Shown: one piece after another, positions 9,046 to 57,768 of the stretch
Position numbering within the stretch: the stretch's first letter is position 1
How the letters are laid out: the number at the start of each line of letters is the position of its first letter
NCBI RefSeq assembly: GCF_964213995.1
Contig: NW_027590120.1
Span: 434,001-498,000, forward strand
Source of the DNA: Mustelus asterias
Taxonomy: Eukaryota
Length of the DNA stretch: 64,000 bases
Direction of reading: 5' to 3'
The notes under the pieces: generated by a model
Database searches by the model: none
What the model was told of the DNA's origin: nothing
What the model saw: the letters and a program-made list of their open reading frames with translations, nothing else
Made by a program: the position numbers and the translations under genes

Positions 9046-10365
9046 ATGGAGAAACTGTGCAAATGTGGGGACTGTGGGAAGGGATTCAGATACCCATCTG
9101 CACTGGAAATTCATCAACGCAGTCACACTGGGGAGAGGCCATTCACCTGCTCTGTGTGTGGGAAGGCATTCACTCATTCATCCCACCTGCGCAGACACAA
9201 TCTCACTCACACCAATGAGAAACCCTTTAAATGCACTGACTGTGGGAGCGGATTCAGAAGCTCTCAGGATCTGGTGTCCCACCAGCGCACTCACACTGAG
9301 GAGAGACCGTTCAGCTGCTCTCACTGCTCAAAGAGGTTTAAATGGTCATCCACCCTGCGGGTACACCAGCGAGTTCACACTGGGGAGAATCCATTCACCT
9401 GCTCGGTATGTGGAAAGGGATTCACTCTTTCATTCCACCTGCGCAGACACAATCTCACACACACCAATGAGAGACTGTTTAAATGCACTGACTGTGGGAG
9501 CGGATTCAAAAGCTCTGGGGAACTGATGTCCCACCAGCGCACTCACACTGAGGAGAGACCGTTCAGCTGCTCTCACTGCTCAAAGAGGTTTAGAACTTCA
9601 TCCACACTGCAGAGACACCAGCGACTTCACACCGGGGAGAGACCGTTCACCTGCTCTGTGTGTGGGAAGGGATTCACTCAGTTATCCATCCTACTGAAAC
9701 ACAATCTCACTCACACCAATGAGAGACCATTTAAATGCTCTGACTGTGGGAGTGGTTTCAAAAGCTCTGGAGATCTGGTGTCCCACCAGCGCATTCACAC
9801 TGAGGAGAGACCGTTCAGCTGCTCTCACTGCACAAAGAGGTTTAGAAAGCCATCCAGCCTGTGGGGACATCTGCGAATTCATACCGGGGAGAGACCATTC
9901 ACCTGCTCTGTGTGTGGAACAGGATTCACTCAGTTATCCCACCTGCGCAGACACAATCTCACTCATACTAATGAGAGACCGTTTAAATGCTCTGACTGTG
10001 GGAGCGGATTCAAAAGCTCTGGGGAACTGATGATCCACCAGCGCATTCACACTGAGGAGAGACCGTTCAGCTGCTCTCACTGCTCAAAGAGGTTTAGAAC
10101 TTCATCCAACCTGCGGAGACACCAGCGAGTTCACACTGAGGAGAGACCGTTCAGCTGCTCTCAATGCACAAAGAGGTTTAAAAGGTCATCCAACCTGTGG
10201 GAACATCAGCGAGTTCACACTGGGGAAAGACCATTCCCCTGCTGTGTGTGTGGGAAGGGATTCACTACTTCATCCAACCTGCTGACACACAAAGCCACTC
10301 ACTCCAAGGAGAGACCCTTTATTGCTCTGCCTGAGAGGCCGGCTTCAGAAGCTCTCAGGAACTGA
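9046..10365 (+). CDS. C2H2 zinc-finger protein 2 (15 fingers, no KRAB), with degenerate fingers on both sides
   Basis: ORF 9010-10365 with ATG at 9046 (MEKLCKCGDC). Decayed fingers at ~8810-9040 and 10366-10715. Acceptor ttacag at 8691-8696. Confidence 0.92.
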   Translation: MEKLCKCGDCGKGFRYPSALEIHQRSHTGERPFTCSVCGKAFTHSSHLRRHNLTHTNEKPFKCTDCGSGFRSSQDLVSHQRTHTEERPFSCSHCSKRFKWSSTLRVHQRVHTGENPFTCSVCGKGFTLSFHLRRHNLTHTNERLFKCTDCGSGFKSSGELMSHQRTHTEERPFSCSHCSKRFRTSSTLQRHQRLHTGERPFTCSVCGKGFTQLSILLKHNLTHTNERPFKCSDCGSGFKSSGDLVSHQRIHTEERPFSCSHCTKRFRKPSSLWGHLRIHTGERPFTCSVCGTGFTQLSHLRRHNLTHTNERPFKCSDCGSGFKSSGELMIHQRIHTEERPFSCSHCSKRFRTSSNLRRHQRVHTEERPFSCSQCTKRFKRSSNLWEHQRVHTGERPFPCCVCGKGFTTSSNLLTHKATHSKERPFIALPERPASEALRN

Positions 10366-16356: not shown

Positions 16357-17199
16357 TCACTTGTGAACTCGCTGGTGTCTCCGCAGGTGGGATGAAAGAC
16401 TGAATCTCTTCTCACACACAGAGCAGGTGAACGGCCTCTCCCCAGTGTGAACTCGCTGGTGTATCCGCAGACTGGATGAATCACAGAATCCCTTCCCACA
16501 CTGAGGGCAGGTGAACGGCCTCTCCCCAGTGTGAACACGATGGTGTTTGTGCAGGTGGGATGACTGAGTGAATCCCTTCCCACACTGAGAGCAGGTGAAT
16601 GGCCTCTCCCCAGTGTGGACTCGCTGGTGTTTCTGCAGGTCATGTGACCGAGTGAACCCCTTCCCACACTGAGAGCAGGTGAATGGCCTCTCCCCAGAAT
16701 GAATGTGCTCATGTGTCCGCAGGTCGGAAGGCCGAGTGAATCCCTTCCCACACTGAGAGCAGGTGAACGGCCTCTCCCCAGTGTGAACCCACTTGTGTGC
16801 CCGCAGGTTGGATGAACAAGCGAATCCCTTCCCACACTGAGGGCAGGTGAATGGCCTCTCCCCAGTGTGAACTCGCTGATGTGTGCGCAGGCTGGATAAA
16901 TAACTGAATCCCTCCCCACACTGAGAACACGTGAACGGTCTCTCCCCAGTGTGAACTCGCTGGTGTGTCTGCAGGCTGGATGACTGAGTGAATCCCTCCC
17001 CACACTGAGAGCAGGTGAATGGTCTCTCCCCAGTGTGAACTCGCTGGTGTGTCTGCAGGCTGGATGACTGAGTGAATCCCTCCCCACACTGAGAGCAGGT
17101 GAATGGTCTCTCCCCAGTGTGGCTGCGCCGATGAGCTTCCAGCTCTGATGGGGCTCTGGATCTCTTCCCACAGTCCCCACATTTCCATGGTTTCTCCAT
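16357..17199 (-). CDS. C2H2 zinc-finger protein 3 (10 fingers, no KRAB)
   Basis: ORF 16357-17235 with likely ATG at 17199 ([10 protein letters not shown]). Fingers 2 and 3 have identical amino-acid sequence. Decayed fingers upstream to ~17450. Confidence 0.92.
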
Positions 17200-20988: not shown

Positions 20989-21292
20989 GCCTTTGGCTAA
21001 GATCAAGTGTAGTATGGATCGCCTGCACTTGGTTGAGGTCATTAGGTTACGCTGAGGCTTCATATGTTTCATATGAAGCAATTTTTAAAAGCGGCATCTC
21101 GGCCTTTTGGCTAAGATGCAAATGAGCTCAAGTCTTGGAGGAGGAACCTCCCCCTTCTCCAATCAGCTTGACTCATGTAGATCAGGCCCAGGACAGGGGG
21201 GTTTTGGTCTCCCGTCCTGTCTTGTCAGCCTGGATCTGAAATGTCTCAACTTGTTGAGACTCTGAATTGGATTTGATTTGATTGAATTGGAA
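20989..21292 (+). mobile_element. U2 snRNA-headed SINE-like element, copy 1 (5'-truncated), antisense in the V intron
   Basis: U2 nt ~12-39 at 20989-21015 and a second U2 piece (nt 7-27) at 21097-21117. Aligns along its length with 28331-28649. Confidence 0.85.
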
Positions 21293-21432
21293 AAGTATAA
21301 AAAAAAAGAAAATATACAGCGGATACAAAGCGGGTTAGGAGACAGAGGAAGACAATAGTCACACAGAGCTGGGAAACGGAAATTGCACAAGGGTTGAAAT
21401 ATACTTTACAATATAAGATCAGAATCACTGAC

Positions 21433-21450: not shown

Positions 21451-21777
21451 TAAGAAGTCTCACAACACCAGGTTAAAGTCCAACAGGTTTTTTTTTATTT
21501 CAAAAATATACTTTATTCACACAAAAAAAACTCTCCAATAAAACATTGCAAAATTACAGATCCAAAAGTCATAAACAGTGTAAAAAAGAATCATTTTTAC
21601 AGTACAATACCGTGCTCATTTACAAAAACATTACATTCCGTTACATTTCATTTCTTAAAACTATATACATGTGTCAGAGTTTACTGTGTGCCGTTGTTTT
21701 TCAGGTTGGCACACAGTTATGCAGGCCGAGAGTATTCTGCAGTTACCCGGCCCTCGGTCTGCCTCGGTTGAGACGCT

Positions 21778-24700
21778 TTACACGGTGGCCTTTCCCCATT
21801 GTGCCTTGGCGGCGGCTGCCCCAAGCTTGAGCGCGTCCCTGAGCACGTAGTCCTGGACCTTGGAATGTGCCAGTCTGCAACACTCGGTCGAGGACAATTC
21901 TTTCAGCTGGAAGATCAGCAAGTTTCGGGCGGACCAAAGTGCGTCCTTCACCGAGTTGATGACCCTCCAGCAGTAGTTGATATTTGTCTCGGTACGCGTC
22001 CCCGGAAACAGCCCGTAGAGCACAGAGTCCTGCGTCACCGAGCTGCTCGGGACGAACCGCGACAAATACCACTGCATCTCGTTCCAGACCTTCTTTGCAA
22101 AGGCACATTCCACAAGGAGGTGTGCGACCGTCTCATCAGCCCCGCAGCCGCTTCGAGGGCAGCGTGCGGTGAGGTTGAGACCCCGGGCATGCATAAAGGA
22201 TCTGACGGGGAGTGCCCTTCTCACCACCAGCCAAGCCAGGTCTTGGTGCTTGTTTGTGAGTTCTGGTGATGAGGCATTCTGCCAAATGACATTGACAGTC
22301 CGCTCAGGGAACCATCCGACAGGATCTGCCGTCTCCTTTTCTCTCAGGGCCTCAAGGACATTACGTGCTGACCACTGCTTGATAGCCATGTGGTCAAAGG
22401 TGTGTTTCCGGAAGAATTTCTCCACGAAGGACAGGTGCTGCGGTACGGTCCAACTACTTGGAGCGTTCCGCGGCAATGTGGCCAGACCCATCCTCCGCAA
22501 CACTTGGGACAGGTAGAACCTCAAAAAATAGTGGCACTTGCTGTTACTGTACCGAGGATCTACACACAGCTTGATGCAGCCGCACACAAAGGTGGCCATC
22601 AGGATGAGGGCGGCGTTGGGAACGTTTTTCCCTCCGTTCTCTGGAGATTTGTGCATCGCCTCCCTCCGGACACGATCCATCTTTGATCTCCAGATGAACT
22701 TGAAGATGGCCCGGGTCACTGCTGCTGCGCAGGACTTGGGGAGAGGCCACACCTGCGCCACGTACAACAACACGGACAGAACCTCGCATCGGATCACAAG
22801 GTTCTTCCCAGTAATGGAGAGGGAGCGTTGCTCCCACAATCCCAATTTTTGTTTGGCTTTGGCGATGCGCTCCTCCCAGTTTTTGGCGCATGCCCCTGCC
22901 GCTCCGAACCATATCCCCAGCACCTTGAGGTAGTCTACCCTAATGGTGAAAGGGACAAAGGATGTGTCAGGCCAGTTCCCAAAGAACATGGCCTCACTCT
23001 TACCCTGGTTGACTTTGGCTCCCGAGGCCAGCTCGAACTGCTCACAGACTCGAAGAAGCCTGCGAACAGACGAGGGGTCCGAGCAGAAAACAGCCACGTC
23101 ATCCATGTAGAGGGAGGCTTTGACTTGCGTCCCTCCGCTGCCTGGGATTGTAACCCCTTTGATGCCTGAGTCGCTTCTGAGGGCCTCGGCAAAGGGTTCA
23201 ATGCAACACACAAAAAGGACGGAGGAGAGAGGGCAGCCCTGCCTGACTCCAGACCTGATTTGAAACATATCTGATTCTCACCCATTGATTGAAACTGCGC
23301 TACTGATGTCTGTGTAGAGCAGTTGGATCCAATTGCAGATTCCCTCCCCAAATCCCATTTTGGACAGCACATCCATCATGTAGCTGTGCGATATTCTGTC
23401 AAACGCCTTCTCCTGGTCTAGACTGATGAGGCAGGTGTCCACCCGCCTGTCCTGCACGTAGGCGATCGTATCCCTGAGTAGCGCAAGGCTATCAGAGATC
23501 TTCCTGCCGGGTACAGCACAGGTTTGATCAGGATGGATTACTGACCCCAGAGCAGACTTGACCCGGTTGGCGATGACCTTGGCCAGAATCTTGTAATCCA
23601 CATTCAATAGTGAAATAGGTCTCCAATTTCTAATTTCTTCCCTTTCCCCCTTCTGCTTGTAGATGAGAGTAATGATGCCTTTCCTCATGGATTCTGACAT
23701 GCTGCCTTCCAGAAGCATACTCTCGTATACTTCCAGGAGGTCCGGGCCCGTCAAGTCCCACAACGCCGAGTAAAACTCAGCCGGTAAGCCGTCGCTACCG
23801 GGAGTTTTACCCTTCTGAAGGGACTCGACGGCCTTTGTCAGCTCATCCAGAGCTACCGGTCTGTCCAGGCTCTCCCGCTCGCCGTCGTCCATGACTTGCG
23901 TGATGGACGACAGGAAAGACTGGGAGGCCGTGCTGTCTGTTGGCTTCAGGTCATACAGTCCGGCATAGAAGGATTTGCAGATCCTCAGAATGTCAGACTG
24001 CGATGACCCTACAGAGCCATCTTCTTCCTTCAGGCTTGTGATCACAGAGGATTCTCTGTGCACCTTCTGGAAGAAGAAGCGCGAGCACGTTTCGTCCTGC
24101 TCCACGAAGTGGACCCAGGACCGGAAGATAACCTTGGAGGCCTCCGAGACAAAGAGCGAGGCTTGCTGGCTCTTCACCACCCGGAGGTCCTCCTTGACAT
24201 CCACCCCCATCGACTGCAGTTGGAGTAGCTCCTGCATGCTTTTCTGGAGTCGGGACATTTCCCCCCGTCTCTCCCTGGCCTTCTGAACCCCTTTTCGGAT
24301 GAAGAACCTCTTGATGTTGCCCTTGATGGTTTCCCACCAGAGCGATGGAGACTCAAAGAAGGGTTTCACGGTCCTCCAACCGTGGTAAACCCTCTTGAGT
24401 TCCTCGAGGTTCTCTGGGGTCAACAGTTCTACATTAAGCTTCCAGGACCCCCTGCCCACTTTCTGGTTTTGCTCCAGCTGACAGTCTGCCAGCAGGAGGC
24501 AGTGGTCAGAGAAGAACACCGGCTTGACGTCGGTGGACCTGACCGTGAGCGTGCGGGATGCAAACATGAAGTCGATCCTGGAGCGGACAGACCCGTCTGG
24601 CCGCGACCACGTGTATCTACGCTGCCCTCCGTCTGCTGGATTGCTGAAGACGTCGAGCAGCCTGGCATCTTTGACTGTTTCCAGCAGGGCTCTGGACGTA

Positions 24701-25186
24701 GCGTCCAGTTTACTTTCGGCCCTGTTGGATCGGCCGGCCTTGTCAATGATGCAGTTAAAGTCCCCACCCAGTATGATTGGCCTGGAGGTGGTGAGTAGCA
24801 GTGGCAGCTGTTCGAAGAGTGCCAGCCGCTCGGTCTTGATGGCAGGGGCATACACATTGATCAGCCTGAGAGGGCAGTTTTTGTACGTGACATCTGCTAC
24901 GAGGAGGCGTCCTCCCACCACCTCCTTAACTTCGGAGACGGTGAAGTTGCCCCCCCCGCAGCAGAATGCCTAGGCCTGATGAACGGCAGTCGTTCCCACC
25001 TGACCAGATGGACGGTCCGTGGGACCACACACTCGACCAGCGCCTGTAGTTGCTGAGGTGTGGTATTCCACACTCCTGCAGGAACAGCAGGTCGGCCTTG
25101 ATCTTGGCCAGGTAGGACAAGCTGGCCGCACATCTCAGGCTGTCTTTAACACTGCGAACATTTAAGGATGCAAACTTTAAAGACAT
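21778..25186 (-). pseudogene. Tx1 ORF2 (endonuclease-reverse transcriptase), one frameshift and one in-frame stop
   Basis: MSLKFASLNVRS...LQE, GGDFN, SRIDF, SDH, WRPISLLN, QGCPLS, YMDD, CPRSGC...H...C. Frameshift in the G-run at ~24950; TGA at 23278-23280 followed by in-frame continuation. Confidence 0.93.
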
Positions 25187-25224: not shown

Positions 25225-26617
25225 TCAGTCAGCCTCCTCCAGGTGCTGCATTCCTGTGGCGCTGACGAAATTCTGCAGGGCTGCAGGGCTGAGGTAGCAG
25301 TCCGACCCTGCCTCAGGTCCCCGACCACGACTGGGTGACATGGTCGGTGTCGTGTAGCCCTCGGTTGGTGCCGGGCTTGCGGGCCGATCTCCGCCTTGGG
25401 CGTTGTCGGTGTCCTCGTTCCTGTTGTCCGGGGTTTCGGGGGCCTCGGCCGCACTGCTGCATCCGTCGGCTGGATGGTCCCCGGCTGCTTTGTGGTCATT
25501 GGTCCGAGTCCATTGTGGTTCCCGTGCCGCTTTCCTAATGCACCGTTTGAGGCTTTGTCGGCTGCCCGCTTTCTTTTCCTCGTCTGAGGAGACGTCGCCC
25601 CTGGAGACCCTGGCTGCGCAGGATTTCCTTTTCTGGGTGCTTTTCTTCTTCTTTACCACCTGCCAGGGGCCCTCGGGATCTCCGTTCTCCTGCTCCATGT
25701 CCTCTGCGCCCTCTGCTGGTGGTGGTGTGGATGTGTCATCATCCTGCTGCACTGGGGGGGGGGGGGGGGGGGGGCACCTTTGCTTCAGAAGCTTTCTCCG
25801 TGCCAGGATCTTTTGCGGTGGGCTTCTTGTTCCCTGAGGCGGCAGGAGCACTCGCCTTCCTCGCTCCGCCTCCGGTGATCTGGGCGTAAGTGACCTTCCG
25901 CTTGGGGCAGACTCTGTAAACGCGGCCAGTCTCCCCACACAGGGTGCAACATTTGCTGTCTTTGCACTCGTCGGTCGAGTGCCCCTCCTTCAGGCAGTTT
26001 CTGCATACGGTGACACTGCAGCTCGCGGCAAAATGGCCGGTTTTGCCACAGTTGCGGCACAGTCGTGGCTGGCCCGTGTAGTACAGGAAGCCTCGATTCC
26101 CTCCGATGGTAAAATTGGAGGGCGGGTGCAGAAGGCCTCCCTTGGGGTCAGTCTTCAGGGTGACTCTCACCTACCTTTTACAGGTCCATATTCCATACTG
26201 GTCCATGACGTCCACGCTCTCTCCCTTCACCTCCACGTACCGGGAGAGGAACGTCAGCACGTCAGCCGCAGGGACGTAGTGGTTATACATTTGGAATGTG
26301 ATAACCCGGTTCCGCTGGGACGGCATGGTGAACAGGGGCTCCGCCGTCAGGATAGAGAGGGGCTCCTCTTTGCCTTTCTCCTTCACCGCTGTCAGGAGCT
26401 TGACGCATCCTGACAGGCTTCTGAAGCTGACATCCACATGTGGCGGCTTGCTGTACTCAGCCACACCATAGATGTCTGCTGCTTGGAATCCGCAGCACTC
26501 GAACAATACCTTCTTCACGAGGTAATCGCGGCCCAGAGGCGAGCCTCCTCCCGAAGGCTTCACCCGGATGGTGTTGGGCTGCCTTTGGCCTGTAGCTTTC
26601 AGAGCAGCTGCAGCCAT
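25225..26617 (-). pseudogene. Tx1 ORF1 (ZCCHC3-like zinc-knuckle protein), one in-frame TAG and a homopolymer frameshift
   Basis: CRNCGKTGHFAASC, CRNCLKEGHSTDEC, CTLCGETGRVYRVC. TAG at 26171-26173; frameshift in the homopolymer at ~25754-25774. Confidence 0.88.
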
Positions 26618-26819
26618 AGCTCGAAAACACTGAGTCTTACTGTACCGGCGTTAGGTCCAAGCCAGAGGCTTGAAACCAGCATAAAGGTCCACCAGTAGCA
26701 GCAGAGCTCAAGTGTTGCAGACGGTCGTCTGCCGGTCGTCTGACGCCTGCTTCTTCAATCCACAATCCCCATCGAAACTCGATAGCTCCTTGCGAAATCC
26801 GAGCCCTTGGCTTTGATCA

Positions 26820-26854
26820 TACACTTGATCTTAGCCAAAAGGCCGAGAAGCGAT
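26820..26854 (-). ncRNA. U2 snRNA 5' fragment (nt 1-35) as the 5' end of the Tx1 element; not a U2 gene
   Basis: Reverse complement reads ATCGCTTCTCGGCCTTTTGGCTAAGATCAAGTGTA, matching the vertebrate U2 5' end. No U2 3' part is present. Confidence 0.95.
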
Positions 26855-28330: not shown

Positions 28331-28649
28331 TTCGCTTCTCGGCCTTTTGGCTAAGATCAAGTGTAGTATGGATTGGATGCTGCACTTGGCTGAGGTCATT
28401 ATGTTACACTGAAGCTTCATATGTTTCATATCAAGCAATTTTTAATAGCGGCACCTCGGCCTTTTGGCTAAGATGCAAATGAGCTCAAGTCTTGGAGGAG
28501 GTGTTGCTTTGCTCCTCCAATCAGCTTGCCTCATGTAGATCAGGCCCAGGACAGGGTGGTTTGGTCGCTCGCCCTGTCTTGTCAGCCTGGATCTGAAATG
28601 TCTCAACTTGTTGAGACTTTGAATTGGATTTGATTTGATTGAATTGGAA
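28331..28649 (+). mobile_element. U2 snRNA-headed SINE-like element, copy 2 (near full length)
   Basis: U2 nt 2-39 at 28332-28369, second U2 piece (nt 8-27) at 28455-28474. Candidate TSD ttggaatat at 28321-28329 and 28644-28652. Confidence 0.88.
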
Positions 28650-28799
28650 TATTGCTTTTGCATCAGTGCTGTGGGATCAAATCCTGGACATCTCTTCCTA
28701 ACGGCATTGTACCAGATGGCTGCAGATTTTAAGAAGTTGATTCACCACCACCTTCTCTAGGGCAATTGGGGATGGGCTACAAGTCCTCGCATTGCCAAT

Positions 28800-54152: not shown

Positions 54153-55637
54153 TCACCCGTCAGGATATGCCACATAGGCATATGGAGGGTTGGCGTGTAG
54201 GAGGTGGACCTGTTCAACCAAAGGGTCAGACTTGCAGGTCCTAACATGCCGCCGCAGGAGGACAGGTCCTGAGTACATCAACCAAGACGGCAGTGAGGTC
54301 CCAGAGGAAGACTTCCTAGGGAAGGTAAACATCCGCTCATGTGGGGTAGCGTTGGTTGCCGTACACAGGAGGGACCGGAATGAGTGGAGCGCATCAGAAA
54401 GTACCTCTTGCCAACGGGAGACTGGAAGACCCTTGGACCTCAAGGCCAGTAAGACAGCCTTCCAGACTGTAGCATTTTCTCTTTCAACCTGCCCGTTACC
54501 CCTGGGATTGTAACTCGTCGTACGACTTGTGGCAATCCCTTTTGAGAGCATGTATTGCCTCAAGTCGTCACTCATAAATGACGAGCCCCTGTCACTATGT
54601 ATATAGCTGGGGTAACCGAACAGTGTGAAAAGATCCCTCAACGCTTTAATAACCGTGGCAGTGATCATGTCTGAACAGGGAATGGCAAAAGGGAATCGGG
54701 AGTACTCGTCAATCACATTGAGGAAGTACACATTCCGATCTGTCGAAGGAAGGGAGCCCTTGAAGTCCACACTCAGTCTTTCAAAGGGCCGAGTGGCCTT
54801 AATGAGATGTGCCCTGTCAGGTCGGTAGAAGTGCGGCTTGCATTCAGCACATACCTGGCAGCTTCGGGTTATTGACATGACATCCTCCACTGAGTGGGGT
54901 AGATTTCGGGCCTTTATGAAATGGAAGAGCCGAGTGATCCCCGGATGGCAGAGATCATTGTGGAGGGCCTGTAATCGATCCTCCTGCACACTGGCACATG
55001 TTCCACGCGACAGGGCGTCTGGGGGCTCATTGAGCTTCCCCGGACGGTACATGATATCATAGTTGTAGGTGGAGAGTTCAATTCTCCACTTCAAGATTTT
55101 ATCATTTTTGATCTTACCCCGTAACGTGTTGTTGAACATGAACGCCACGGACCGCTGGTCCATGAGCAGGGTAAATAATTTCCCAGCCAAGTAATGGCGC
55201 CAATGCCGTACGGCCTCCCCAGTGGCCTGAGCCTCGTTTTCCACCGCGGAGTGCCGAATTTCAGGGCCTTGGAGGGTGCGAGAGGAAATGGCGACGGGCC
55301 TGCCCACTTGGTTGAGTGTGGCGGCCAGGGCGAAGTCAGATGCATCACTCTCCACCTGAAAGGAGATGGATTCATCAACAGCGTGCATCGTGGCCTTCGC
55401 GATGTCAGCTTTTATCCCTTCAAAGGCTAAGCGTGCCTCTGCTGCCAGGGGAAAAGAAGTAGACTTAATAAGTGGACGGGCTTTGTCCGCATAGTTGGGG
55501 ACCCACTGTGCGTAGTATGAGAAGAAGTCTATGCATCTTCTCAGTGCTTTAATGCTCGTGGGTAAGGGAAGTGCAAGGAGGGGACACATGCAGTCTGGAT
55601 CAGGGCCAAGGACCCCGTTTTCCACCACGTAATCCAA
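54153..55637 (-). pseudogene. Gypsy RNase H-integrase
   Basis: SDASD RNase H, HHCC (H..HPG..CQVC), and the DDE core (SVDF, HSDRG, GQVER). Confidence 0.92.
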
Positions 55638-55716
55638 GAATAGCTAGGCGGCGGTTGCTAAAGACACACTTCTCCCTGTTATAGGTCAAATTCAGGCGAG
55701 ACGCATTGCGTAAGAA

Positions 55717-57768
55717 CTATAGGAGGTTTGCGTCGTGGTCCTGCTGGTCATGGCCGCAGATAGTGACGTTGTCCAGGTACGGGAAGGTAGCCCGTCGCCC
55801 GTTTTGGTCCACCATTCGGTCCATTGAATGCTGGAAGACCGAGACCCCATTCGTGACGCCAAAGGGGACCCTTAAGAAATGATAGAGACGACCATCCGCC
55901 TCAAAGGCCATGTATGTTCGGTCCTCTGGGCGAATGGGGAGCTGGTGGTAGGCTGACTTCAAGTCGATGGTGGAGAACACCCAGTACTGCGCAATCTGGT
56001 TGACCATGTCAGATATGCGCGGGAGAGGATACGCATCCAACTGCGTGTATCTATTAATGGTCTGACTATAGTCTATGACCATCCGGGGTTTGTCTCCAGT
56101 TTTAACCACCATGACTTGTGCTCTCCATGGGCTAGAGCTAGGTTGAATGATCCCTTCCCTGAGGAGCCGCTGAACCTCAGATCGAATAACGATCCGATCC
56201 TCAGCGCTGTAACGCCTGCTCTTAGTTGCAATGGGCTTGCAGCCTGGCACGAGATTCTCGAATAAAGATGGCGGGGTGATTCTGAGTGTCGAGAGGCTAC
56301 ACGTGGAGTGCGCTGGGCAATTTGGAGGCTGCTGTTCTCCCACTGAAAGTGAAGGGAGTGGCCCATTGTACTGCAGGGTCACCCTCCGCAGGTGGACCAT
56401 AAAGTCTAGCCCCAGGAGTATCGGAGCACCAAGGTGCGGTGACACGAGGAGCCTGAAGTGCTCGTAAACTGTGCCTCGCACCGTTAGGTTGACCACGCAG
56501 CTCCTGAGCACAGTAACAGATCGGGACCTCGACGCCATCGAAATTGTCTGTCTGACAGTCTGTACTCGGAGTCCGCACCGTTTTACAGTGTCAGGGTGAA
56601 TAAAAGTCTCCGTGCTCCCACTATCAAACAGACAATGAAATGGGCGTCCATTTACCTCTATGCCCATCATGGACTTGTCGAGTCTGTGAGGCTTGGCCTG
56701 GTCCAGGACGACTGACGCCACCGTTGAGCCTGGATTGCAACTGTACGCAGCTGAGATGGTTGATGGAAGATGACCCTGCTGGTCGTCTGTGGTTGGTGCC
56801 GACCAAAATGGCTGCGCCCATGGATCGCACATGGTCGGTGGCGCTGAAAGTGGCGGCACCTGCAGGTCGCATGCGTCTTGCGCCGTCGTCGTCAGGAATG
56901 GCGGCGTCCATGAACCGCACGTGGTGGAAGACCTCGATGAAGCCTGAGACAAGGAGACAGATTCTGGAGAATCACACGCCGCACTGCTATTCTTCGAAGG
57001 TGGTTTAGCTCTACATACTTTGGCATAGTGCCCTTTCTTCCCACACGCAGAGCAAAATACCGTTCTGGCCGGACATCGCTGCCGAGGGTGTTTCGCCAAA
57101 CCACAGAAATAGCACCATGGGCCTCCTGGAGCAGCCACCGTCGTCAGGTCCGAGGTTGCAGGCACGATCGCGCAGTTTCTCAGAGCCGCTGAGTAATGTT
57201 GGTTCGGTGGCTGTACTTGCCACGACGTTCCCACGTGGTCGGTGGGGTAGGTTTCTCGGCTTCTGGAGGCCGTTTCCATCATGTCAGCCAATTCCACCGT
57301 CTTAGCTAGGTCTAGGTTGCCTTGCTCTAGCAGCCGCAGGCAAATGTAGGATGAGCTGATTCCCGCCACAAACGCATCTCGGATCAAATCGTTAGTATAC
57401 TGGGCCACCGACACAGGCTTGCAATTGCAGGCTCTGGCTAGCTGCTGAAGTTTGCACAGGTACTGCCCCGTCGTTTCACCGGGCTGCCGCCGTCGGGTGG
57501 CTAGAAGGTGTCGAGCATGAATCTCGTTTGGCGATTTGTTGTACAGTTTCTTAAGTAGTTCGATGGCCGCTTTGTAGTCAGGGGCATCGCGGATTGATGA
57601 GTATACAGTGTCGCTTACCCTTGCGTGGAGGACCCGCAGTCGATCGGCGTCGCTTTGAATGGCTGTTGAGGCCTTGACATAATCTTGGAAACACTTGAGC
57701 CAATGATCGAACATGATTGACGCACGCGGATCTAACGTCAGTCGATCAGGTTTCAACAGTTGCTCCAT
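55717..57768 (-). pseudogene. Gypsy Gag-protease-RT (ends in a premature stop)
   Basis: CYFC...H...C and CSAC...H...C knuckles, protease LFDSGS, RT YLDN (YxDD mutated). Confidence 0.92.

Follow-up and report, generated by a model that had tools for sequence, protein, structure and literature searches.

Why should the RNA of a protein-coding retrotransposon begin with the 5' end of a host small nuclear RNA, and why should the element follow this head at once with a stretch that can fold back over it? These questions are raised by a 5.4-kb LINE on the minus strand (26854 to 21488) of the window, by which we mean the whole 64,000-nucleotide stretch of Mustelus asterias DNA that was analysed. A preliminary description had noticed that the element starts with U2 nt 1-35 and had proposed that the antisense arm behind it masks or remodels the U2 head; the letters are as quoted there, 26854-26820 (minus strand) being U2 nt 1-35 and 26819-26798 reading as given. 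The arm is 22 nt long and lies directly after U2 nt 35, and in the element's RNA the head presumably forms the 5' end (Table 1).

Table 1. Features of the LINE and of the two U2-headed SINE-like copies in the window
Feature	Position	Strand	Remarks
U2 snRNA nt 1-35 head	26820..26854	-	100% match to intact U2 genes of the same genome
Antisense arm, element nt 36-57	26798..26819	-	predicted pairing with U2 nt 25-29, 11-22 and 7-9
Second predicted 5' UTR hairpin, element nt 59-96	26759..26796	-	no U2 involved; prediction only
Element-encoded 5' UTR, element nt 36-237	26618..26819	-	ORF1 ATG at element nt 238 in 30/30 loci
ORF1, two ZCCHC3-type RNA-binding domains and zinc knuckles	25225..26617	-	domains scored on open copy L009
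ORF2, AP-type endonuclease, reverse transcriptase and zf-RVT	21778..25186	-	three pieces in the window copy
3' UTR, AATAAA and poly(A) tail	21488..21777	-	no U2 after it, no target-site duplication
U2-headed SINE-like copy carrying an antisense arm of its own and, internally, another U2 piece	28332..28650	+	family comparison
Second copy of the same U2-headed SINE-like family, head slightly truncated	20990..21310	+	family comparison

The window copy is a dispersed, off-target copy of an on-target family and is broken in both frames, ORF1 being interrupted after 148 codons. It lies outside U2 genes, flanked by other repeats with neither a U2 remainder nor a duplication; its 5' flank is common with that of one other copy (L002) over 1.5 kb, and the 3' flanks of the two differ. 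ORF1 of the open copy gave the domains PF23057 and PF23058, which are of Tx1 type and have relatives with CCHC knuckles, and ORF2 gave PF03372 (E 7.7e-11) and RVT_1 within 23281-24969, the endonuclease being N-terminal to the reverse transcriptase. Proteins related to ORF1 occur in other sharks, rays and gar, the closest being those of cartilaginous fishes. Judged by its AP endonuclease, its Tx1-type ORF1 and its U2 insertion site, the family can be assigned to Keno, which is described as a U2 snRNA gene-specific, AP-endonuclease LINE of the Tx1 clade (Kojima and Fujiwara 2004, as cited in PMC6136364, PMC4640811 and PMC4494074). Elsewhere in the window, LTR-retrotransposon-like gag/pol frames and two C2H2 zinc-finger array frames, labeled from the look of their translations, occupy 54153-57768 (minus strand), 9046-10365 (plus strand) and 16357-17199 (minus strand).

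A search of the genome with the 5' UTR gave 40 scored matches of 93-100% identity, and in each of the 30 loci that were read, spread over many unrelated sites and one tandem array, head and arm are both present. The UTR is also covered, at 80-99% identity, by contigs of four other organisms, the match extending into the arm in two of these; among the sequencing runs listed as holding the element none was of RNA. The dispersed copies led to an early idea that the family had departed from U2 genes, which was overturned by the copies in U2 arrays. On C21 and C24, array copies are preceded by U2 upstream DNA and U2 nt 1-35 (or 1-33) and followed by poly(A) and U2 nt 38 onward. A tail was present in 11 of the 20 3' regions fetched, five LINE 3' ends on C21 and the array copies on C24 run into U2 nt 38 onward, and 22 poly(A)-U2 nt 38 junctions were found with LINE and SINE pooled, many of them from one array. 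The insertion point is 37 nt from the 5' end of the U2 gene, in agreement with the site reported for Keno (PMC6136364, PMC4640811). Since sister copies are flanked by U2 nt 1-35 on one side and by nt 38 onward on the other, the head is a piece of the target that has been taken along, and because target-site duplications lie outside the head (clear in 5 of the 10 dispersed copies compared), it travels within the RNA; several dispersed copies begin at U2 nt 1. Seamless 5' junctions were found twice on C21 and also on C7, C15 and C19 (the last three without recovered 3' ends), and the other 5' junctions have a duplicated U2 nt 38-52 or 38-57 ahead of a second head, a pattern for which template switching to U2 RNA had been considered and was dropped in favor of target-site duplication in U2 genes. 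Seamless and duplicated junctions are described as the two outcomes for R2 templates that carry target sequence (PMC3774820, PMC11331408). We propose that transcription starts at the U2 gene promoter, so that the RNA would begin with host U2 nt 1-35, and that the head would be reverse-transcribed and its cDNA anneal upstream of the nick, rebuilding a promoter-driven copy, as for R2.

Among the U2 loci, there is at G000:C24:44.81-44.94 Mb (L010-L024, L195) a tandem array of about 16 units of ~8,035 bp, each holding one intact U2 gene and one Keno-interrupted U2 gene. Two types of U2 gene, ~90% identical, are found at G000:C21:28.05-28.08 Mb (L115, L116) and C24:42.98-43.06 Mb (L119-L140); they differ in upstream sequence and repeat unit (~448 bp and 1,833 bp), and LINE and SINE have hit both. 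At the 3' junction of L204 (G000:C1991), U2 nt 38 adjoins another kind of repeat, which has an A run as its end; this suggests that an unrelated RNA was mobilized into the Keno site. An older, internally deleted Keno copy at L198:5640-5720 is without the arm and stands behind an apparent short U1 5' piece, so labeled from its motif.

The head and arm together (26795-26854) have a predicted fold of -23.3 kcal/mol (z -3.93; 0/200 shuffles), and the first 100 nt of the element also fold better than shuffled controls (z -3.40; 1/200), as expected under the pairing first proposed. Much of the hairpin drawn by hand stands in the ensemble prediction, namely the upper helix (25-29/36-40, P 1.0), the 2x2 A:A loop, the AGUGUA loop and U22-A43 (P 0.97); its lower stem, however, was one register off, C13-G51 (P 0.99) taking the place of C14-G51 (P 0.01) with one U bulged, and the predicted stem extends further, to U2 nt 11-12 and 7-9. 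The hand-drawn structure scored alone gives -16.6. Of the 35 head bases, about 22 have a predicted partner in the sequence of the element, and native stem-loop I falls from P 1.00 in the U2 gene to 0.00 in the element, alike in 80-, 120- and 200-nt folds of the 5' end, so that the remodeling of the U2 head is borne out as a prediction. Whole-sequence shuffles flatter the hairpin score, because the head is itself a hairpin, folding alone as stem-loop I at -10.4. With the head fixed, 4/100 shuffles were as good by a duplex measure (z -2.0) and 18/100 by expected cross-pairs (z 1.1), and the performance of the arm was matched by 34 of 879 other 30-nt windows of the element and 21 of 2,824 background 45-nt windows. 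Under these stricter nulls p is 0.007-0.04, with one measure at 0.18, and the window arm by itself exceeds chance only moderately. The idea that wobble pairs give a hairpin in RNA and leave the cDNA open was rejected, since sense and antisense strands of the window arm fold alike, with no RNA-versus-cDNA asymmetry.

That the 5' structure is part of an R2-like self-cleaving ribozyme is extremely unlikely. The argument for it is one of analogy only, R2 being likewise co-transcribed with its target (PMC3774820), and against it the predicted fold is a plain hairpin, the dispersed copies that start at U2 nt 1 mean that the head is not cut off, and an Rfam search with relaxed thresholds over the window region and seven metagenome loci returned no ribozyme family.

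Among 37 distinct shark LINE copies the sole change common to several is G50A (5 copies), which turns U-G into U-A in the originally proposed register and still folds (-21.6). The substitution rate is 0.019 in the arm versus 0.037 in the UTR (29 gap-free of the 37 copies), a difference that we set aside because most copies were found through the arm. A mobile subfamily of eight copies, counted by exact matches and including the C21 array copies, has U2 1-33 followed at once by the arm's second half. Its lower stem is retained and its upper stem missing, so that the upper stem is dispensable; stem-loop I is still lost in prediction, but the pairing is no better than in shuffles (z -1.6; duplex p 0.80).

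Support comes from other elements with arms of their own. Two copies of a U2-headed SINE flank the LINE in the window. This family is non-coding and ~320 nt long, with a U2 head and an A tail, and comprises several subfamilies, one 34-nt internal motif having at least 2,795 exact matches; it has no sequence in common with the LINE beyond the head. U2 genes carry the SINE too, again at nt 38 and frequently arranged in tandem with LINE copies, so that it has likely been moved by the Keno LINE. Its arm sets 17 nt against U2 nt 18-22 and 25-34, with a LINE-like 2x2 purine loop at A23-A24. By a fixed score (at least 18 cross pairs, and stem-loop I below 0.1, within the first 80 nt) 41 of 44 copies pass, with a spacer of seven different lengths before the arm. 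The pair is kept in 38 of the 44 variant cells; the six that break it are all singletons, and the variants common to several copies all preserve pairing, although several of them are what CpG decay gives anyway and the copies are not independent.

More distant families were sought by scanning metagenome contigs for U2 heads that do not run on into U2; the pattern demanded a head intact through nt 35 and any base but C at nt 40, and so misses shorter heads. This gave 77 loci, two of them too short to score. Fifteen of the 77 are Tx1-like elements preceded by a single kind of animal U2 upstream sequence; their assignment to Tx1 comes from ORF1/ORF2 matches or from 5' sequence common with such loci. 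Families A-D resemble Keno in 5' context and ORF1 only. Family A (8 loci), whose ORF1 is 26% identical to that of the shark over 110 aa, has an arm that differs in sequence and whose pairing covers U2 nt 6-31. The fixed score was passed by 8/8 family A loci versus 5/60 other U2-headed loci; among the Tx1 loci it was passed by 8/15, all of family A, and by 9 at a looser cut. In family A, 95.8% of 192 cells pair, versus 29-60% when the arm is slid; four arm columns switch between Watson-Crick and wobble on one side, and both bulge columns vary. Four pairs have breaks, C28-43 being broken in 4/8 and U22-49 in 2/8, and some copies (L269) lose the hairpin in 200-nt folds. The arm is 73-100% identical between copies, versus 24-40% over the next 120 columns in 13 of 15 pairs, the remaining two being close relatives. 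The arm is not universal, as six of the 15 Tx1 loci (5/6 of family B, and family C) keep stem-loop I without a full arm: family B has an arm in 1/6 loci and family C a partial arm only. In a single element, L281:861, the head measures 23 nt and a 12-bp arm lies over U2 nt 9-20 (z -1.96). The supporting loci are not independent and represent about three well-supported lineages, and screening of three U2 matches in viral contigs found nothing. Related families complementary to U2, on which the first proposal depended, were thus found in the arms of family A and of the shark SINE. The compensatory changes also looked for between families were absent in their two-sided form (0 observed) and seen only one-sided; two-sided changes could not be expected, because the head, the 5' strand, is fixed host sequence.

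Several other features of the metagenome loci were observed. In columns 207-216 of alignment A1 (L228, L259, L260, L295 and others) family A has conserved the motif GGTGAGTAC although the UTR around it has diverged; it lies ~40-50 nt ahead of the start of ORF1, with no obvious acceptor before the ATG, is 5' splice-site-like and is possibly a U1-binding site. A repeated element with an altered U2 head and no ORF1 match (L236, L257, L276, L282, L283) may represent a further non-autonomous family with a U2 head. U2 genes are interrupted at ~nt 35-38 by short inserts whose ends are splice-site-like, the same spot as Keno (L221, L235, L237, L238, L244, L250, L261, L263, L264, L268, L277, L280, L292, L297 and others); we take them to be spliceosomal introns in U2, which are known from fungi.

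Given similar arms in a distant relative and in a short parasite SINE, the arm of the LINE was likely kept by selection, and the persistence of the arms very probably points to selection on pairing, whether their ancestry is common or separate; either history would look alike in sequence, as all arms approach one reverse complement. The preliminary description had also allowed that the arm is a snap-back relic of reverse transcription. A functionless relic, left by a one-time snap-back copy of the upstream target or by chance complementarity, would fit the closeness of the arm to the reverse complement of U2 7-29, the modest p values of the window arm and the families B and C that do without, and snap-back junctions are described at low frequency in R2 insertions (PMC11331408). 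It is nevertheless unlikely, since the arm of family A is conserved amid unalignable UTR, outlasting its neighborhood, since the SINE arm stays constant while its spacer changes, and since none of the U2-gene 5' junctions examined has a fresh perfect inverted repeat. As an origin snap-back is possible: the arm may have begun as such a duplication and then been kept.

What the pairing is kept for is less certain. We give slightly better than even credence to a mask acting in cis, the arm having been kept by selection so that the modeled RNA would present no working U2 5' end. This reading is favored because all arms capture stem-loop I and the U6-pairing segment, both of which have functional roles in U2; G19-G20 of stem-loop I are captured by each arm observed, and the reach beyond differs between lineages. 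The arm is predicted to replace stem-loop I and to cover the U2 segments that pair with U6, and the mask would prevent U6, the guides for U2 modification and factors that bind U2 from engaging a 5.4-kb RNA whose export and translation are presumably required. Two other purposes of masking fit poorly. Avoidance of snRNP assembly, which the preliminary description had suggested, is not supported, as the Sm site, on which assembly depends, lies at about nt 99-105 in the U2 of this genome, outside the head; nor is hiding of the branch-site recognition region, as only nt 33-35 of it remain, predicted to be unpaired in the loop.

A possible but rather doubtful alternative is that the hairpin is selected as a generic structured 5' module, for RNA stability, as a binding site for an element protein or for control of the reverse-transcription end, U2 being used merely as the available 5' sequence. 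R2 gives precedents, in that the P1 stems of its ribozyme use upstream 28S sequence (PMC3774820) and a stable 5' fold raises insertion efficiency (PMC11331408), and the differing reach of the arms and the two rearranged shark 5' ends (L062 and the deletion subfamily), which break inside the arm, would also suit a generic stem. Stem-loop I, however, already provides a 5' stem without any arm and is destroyed by every arm found, and the absence of RNA-versus-cDNA asymmetry in the window arm also speaks against a generic module; a mask and any stable 5' stem are nonetheless indistinguishable by the evidence here. It is very unlikely that the arm instead acts in trans on free or nascent U2 snRNA, bringing the RNP to U2 genes or interfering with U2. 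Co-folding with the U2 5' end does give a comparable duplex, and in both shark elements the upper and lower helices flank A23-A24, an arrangement that we take to resemble the pairing of U6 with U2. The gain over the cis hairpin is only -1.3 kcal/mol, though, so that folding within the molecule should prevail; many copies have inserted away from U2 genes, and target-site duplication of U2 38-52/57 accounts for the double heads with no template switching.

Keno, U2-headed Tx1 LINEs and SINEU are already published (PMC4494074, PMC4640811, PMC6136364, PMC5786205, PMC4758252). The shark family is like Keno in its AP endonuclease, its two ORFs and its 3' junction at U2 nt 38 in U2 arrays, and unlike the accounts of Keno in that its many copies outside U2 genes carry the U2 head; the passages on Keno in PMC6136364, PMC4640811 and PMC4494074 mention no antisense arm. 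Utopia has the same U2 insertion site and a restriction-like endonuclease, whereas that of the shark element is of AP type (PMC4640811). Crocodilian genomes have U2/U1-headed Tx1-Mar LINEs and SINEU, the latter described only from crocodilians, and thus likewise combine a U2-derived head on a Tx1 LINE with a short poly(A) element, with repeated 5' additions of snRNA (PMC4494074). The crocodilian heads are, however, ascribed there to template switching and the target is a Mariner transposon (PMC4494074), whereas the shark LINE and SINE are still in U2 genes behind U2 upstream DNA. The shark SINE answers to the description of SINEU (short, with poly(A), a U2 head and many copies), a likeness of build. 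With R2 the shark element has in common a presumed co-transcription with the target, predicted pairing of the element with upstream target RNA, and seamless and duplicated 5' junctions (PMC3774820, PMC11331408); unlike it, the R2 pairing as described sits inside an HDV-like ribozyme, of which none was found in the shark element, whose head is whole. A literature search outside the original Keno paper, figures, Repbase and the SINEU supplements gave no report of the arm, of its recurrence or of a shark SINE targeting U2 genes.

We tentatively suggest a more general picture, in which U2-gene retrotransposons and their SINEs have repeatedly evolved U6-like arms that refold the U2 head, the mask allowing RNA transcribed from such a promoter to avoid being handled as an snRNA and to function as mRNA and as template for retrotransposition, and in which snRNA-headed SINEs may be transcribed from master copies inside snRNA genes. 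Expression of snRNA-gene elements is described as an open matter for SINEU (PMC4494074). The shark genome holds both a LINE and a SINE behind U2 upstream DNA, together with a short 5' RNA feature that is testable. If the arm is needed, it would identify what an snRNA-promoter transcript has to conceal in order to function as an mRNA, and would be a design point for target-specific LINE tools.
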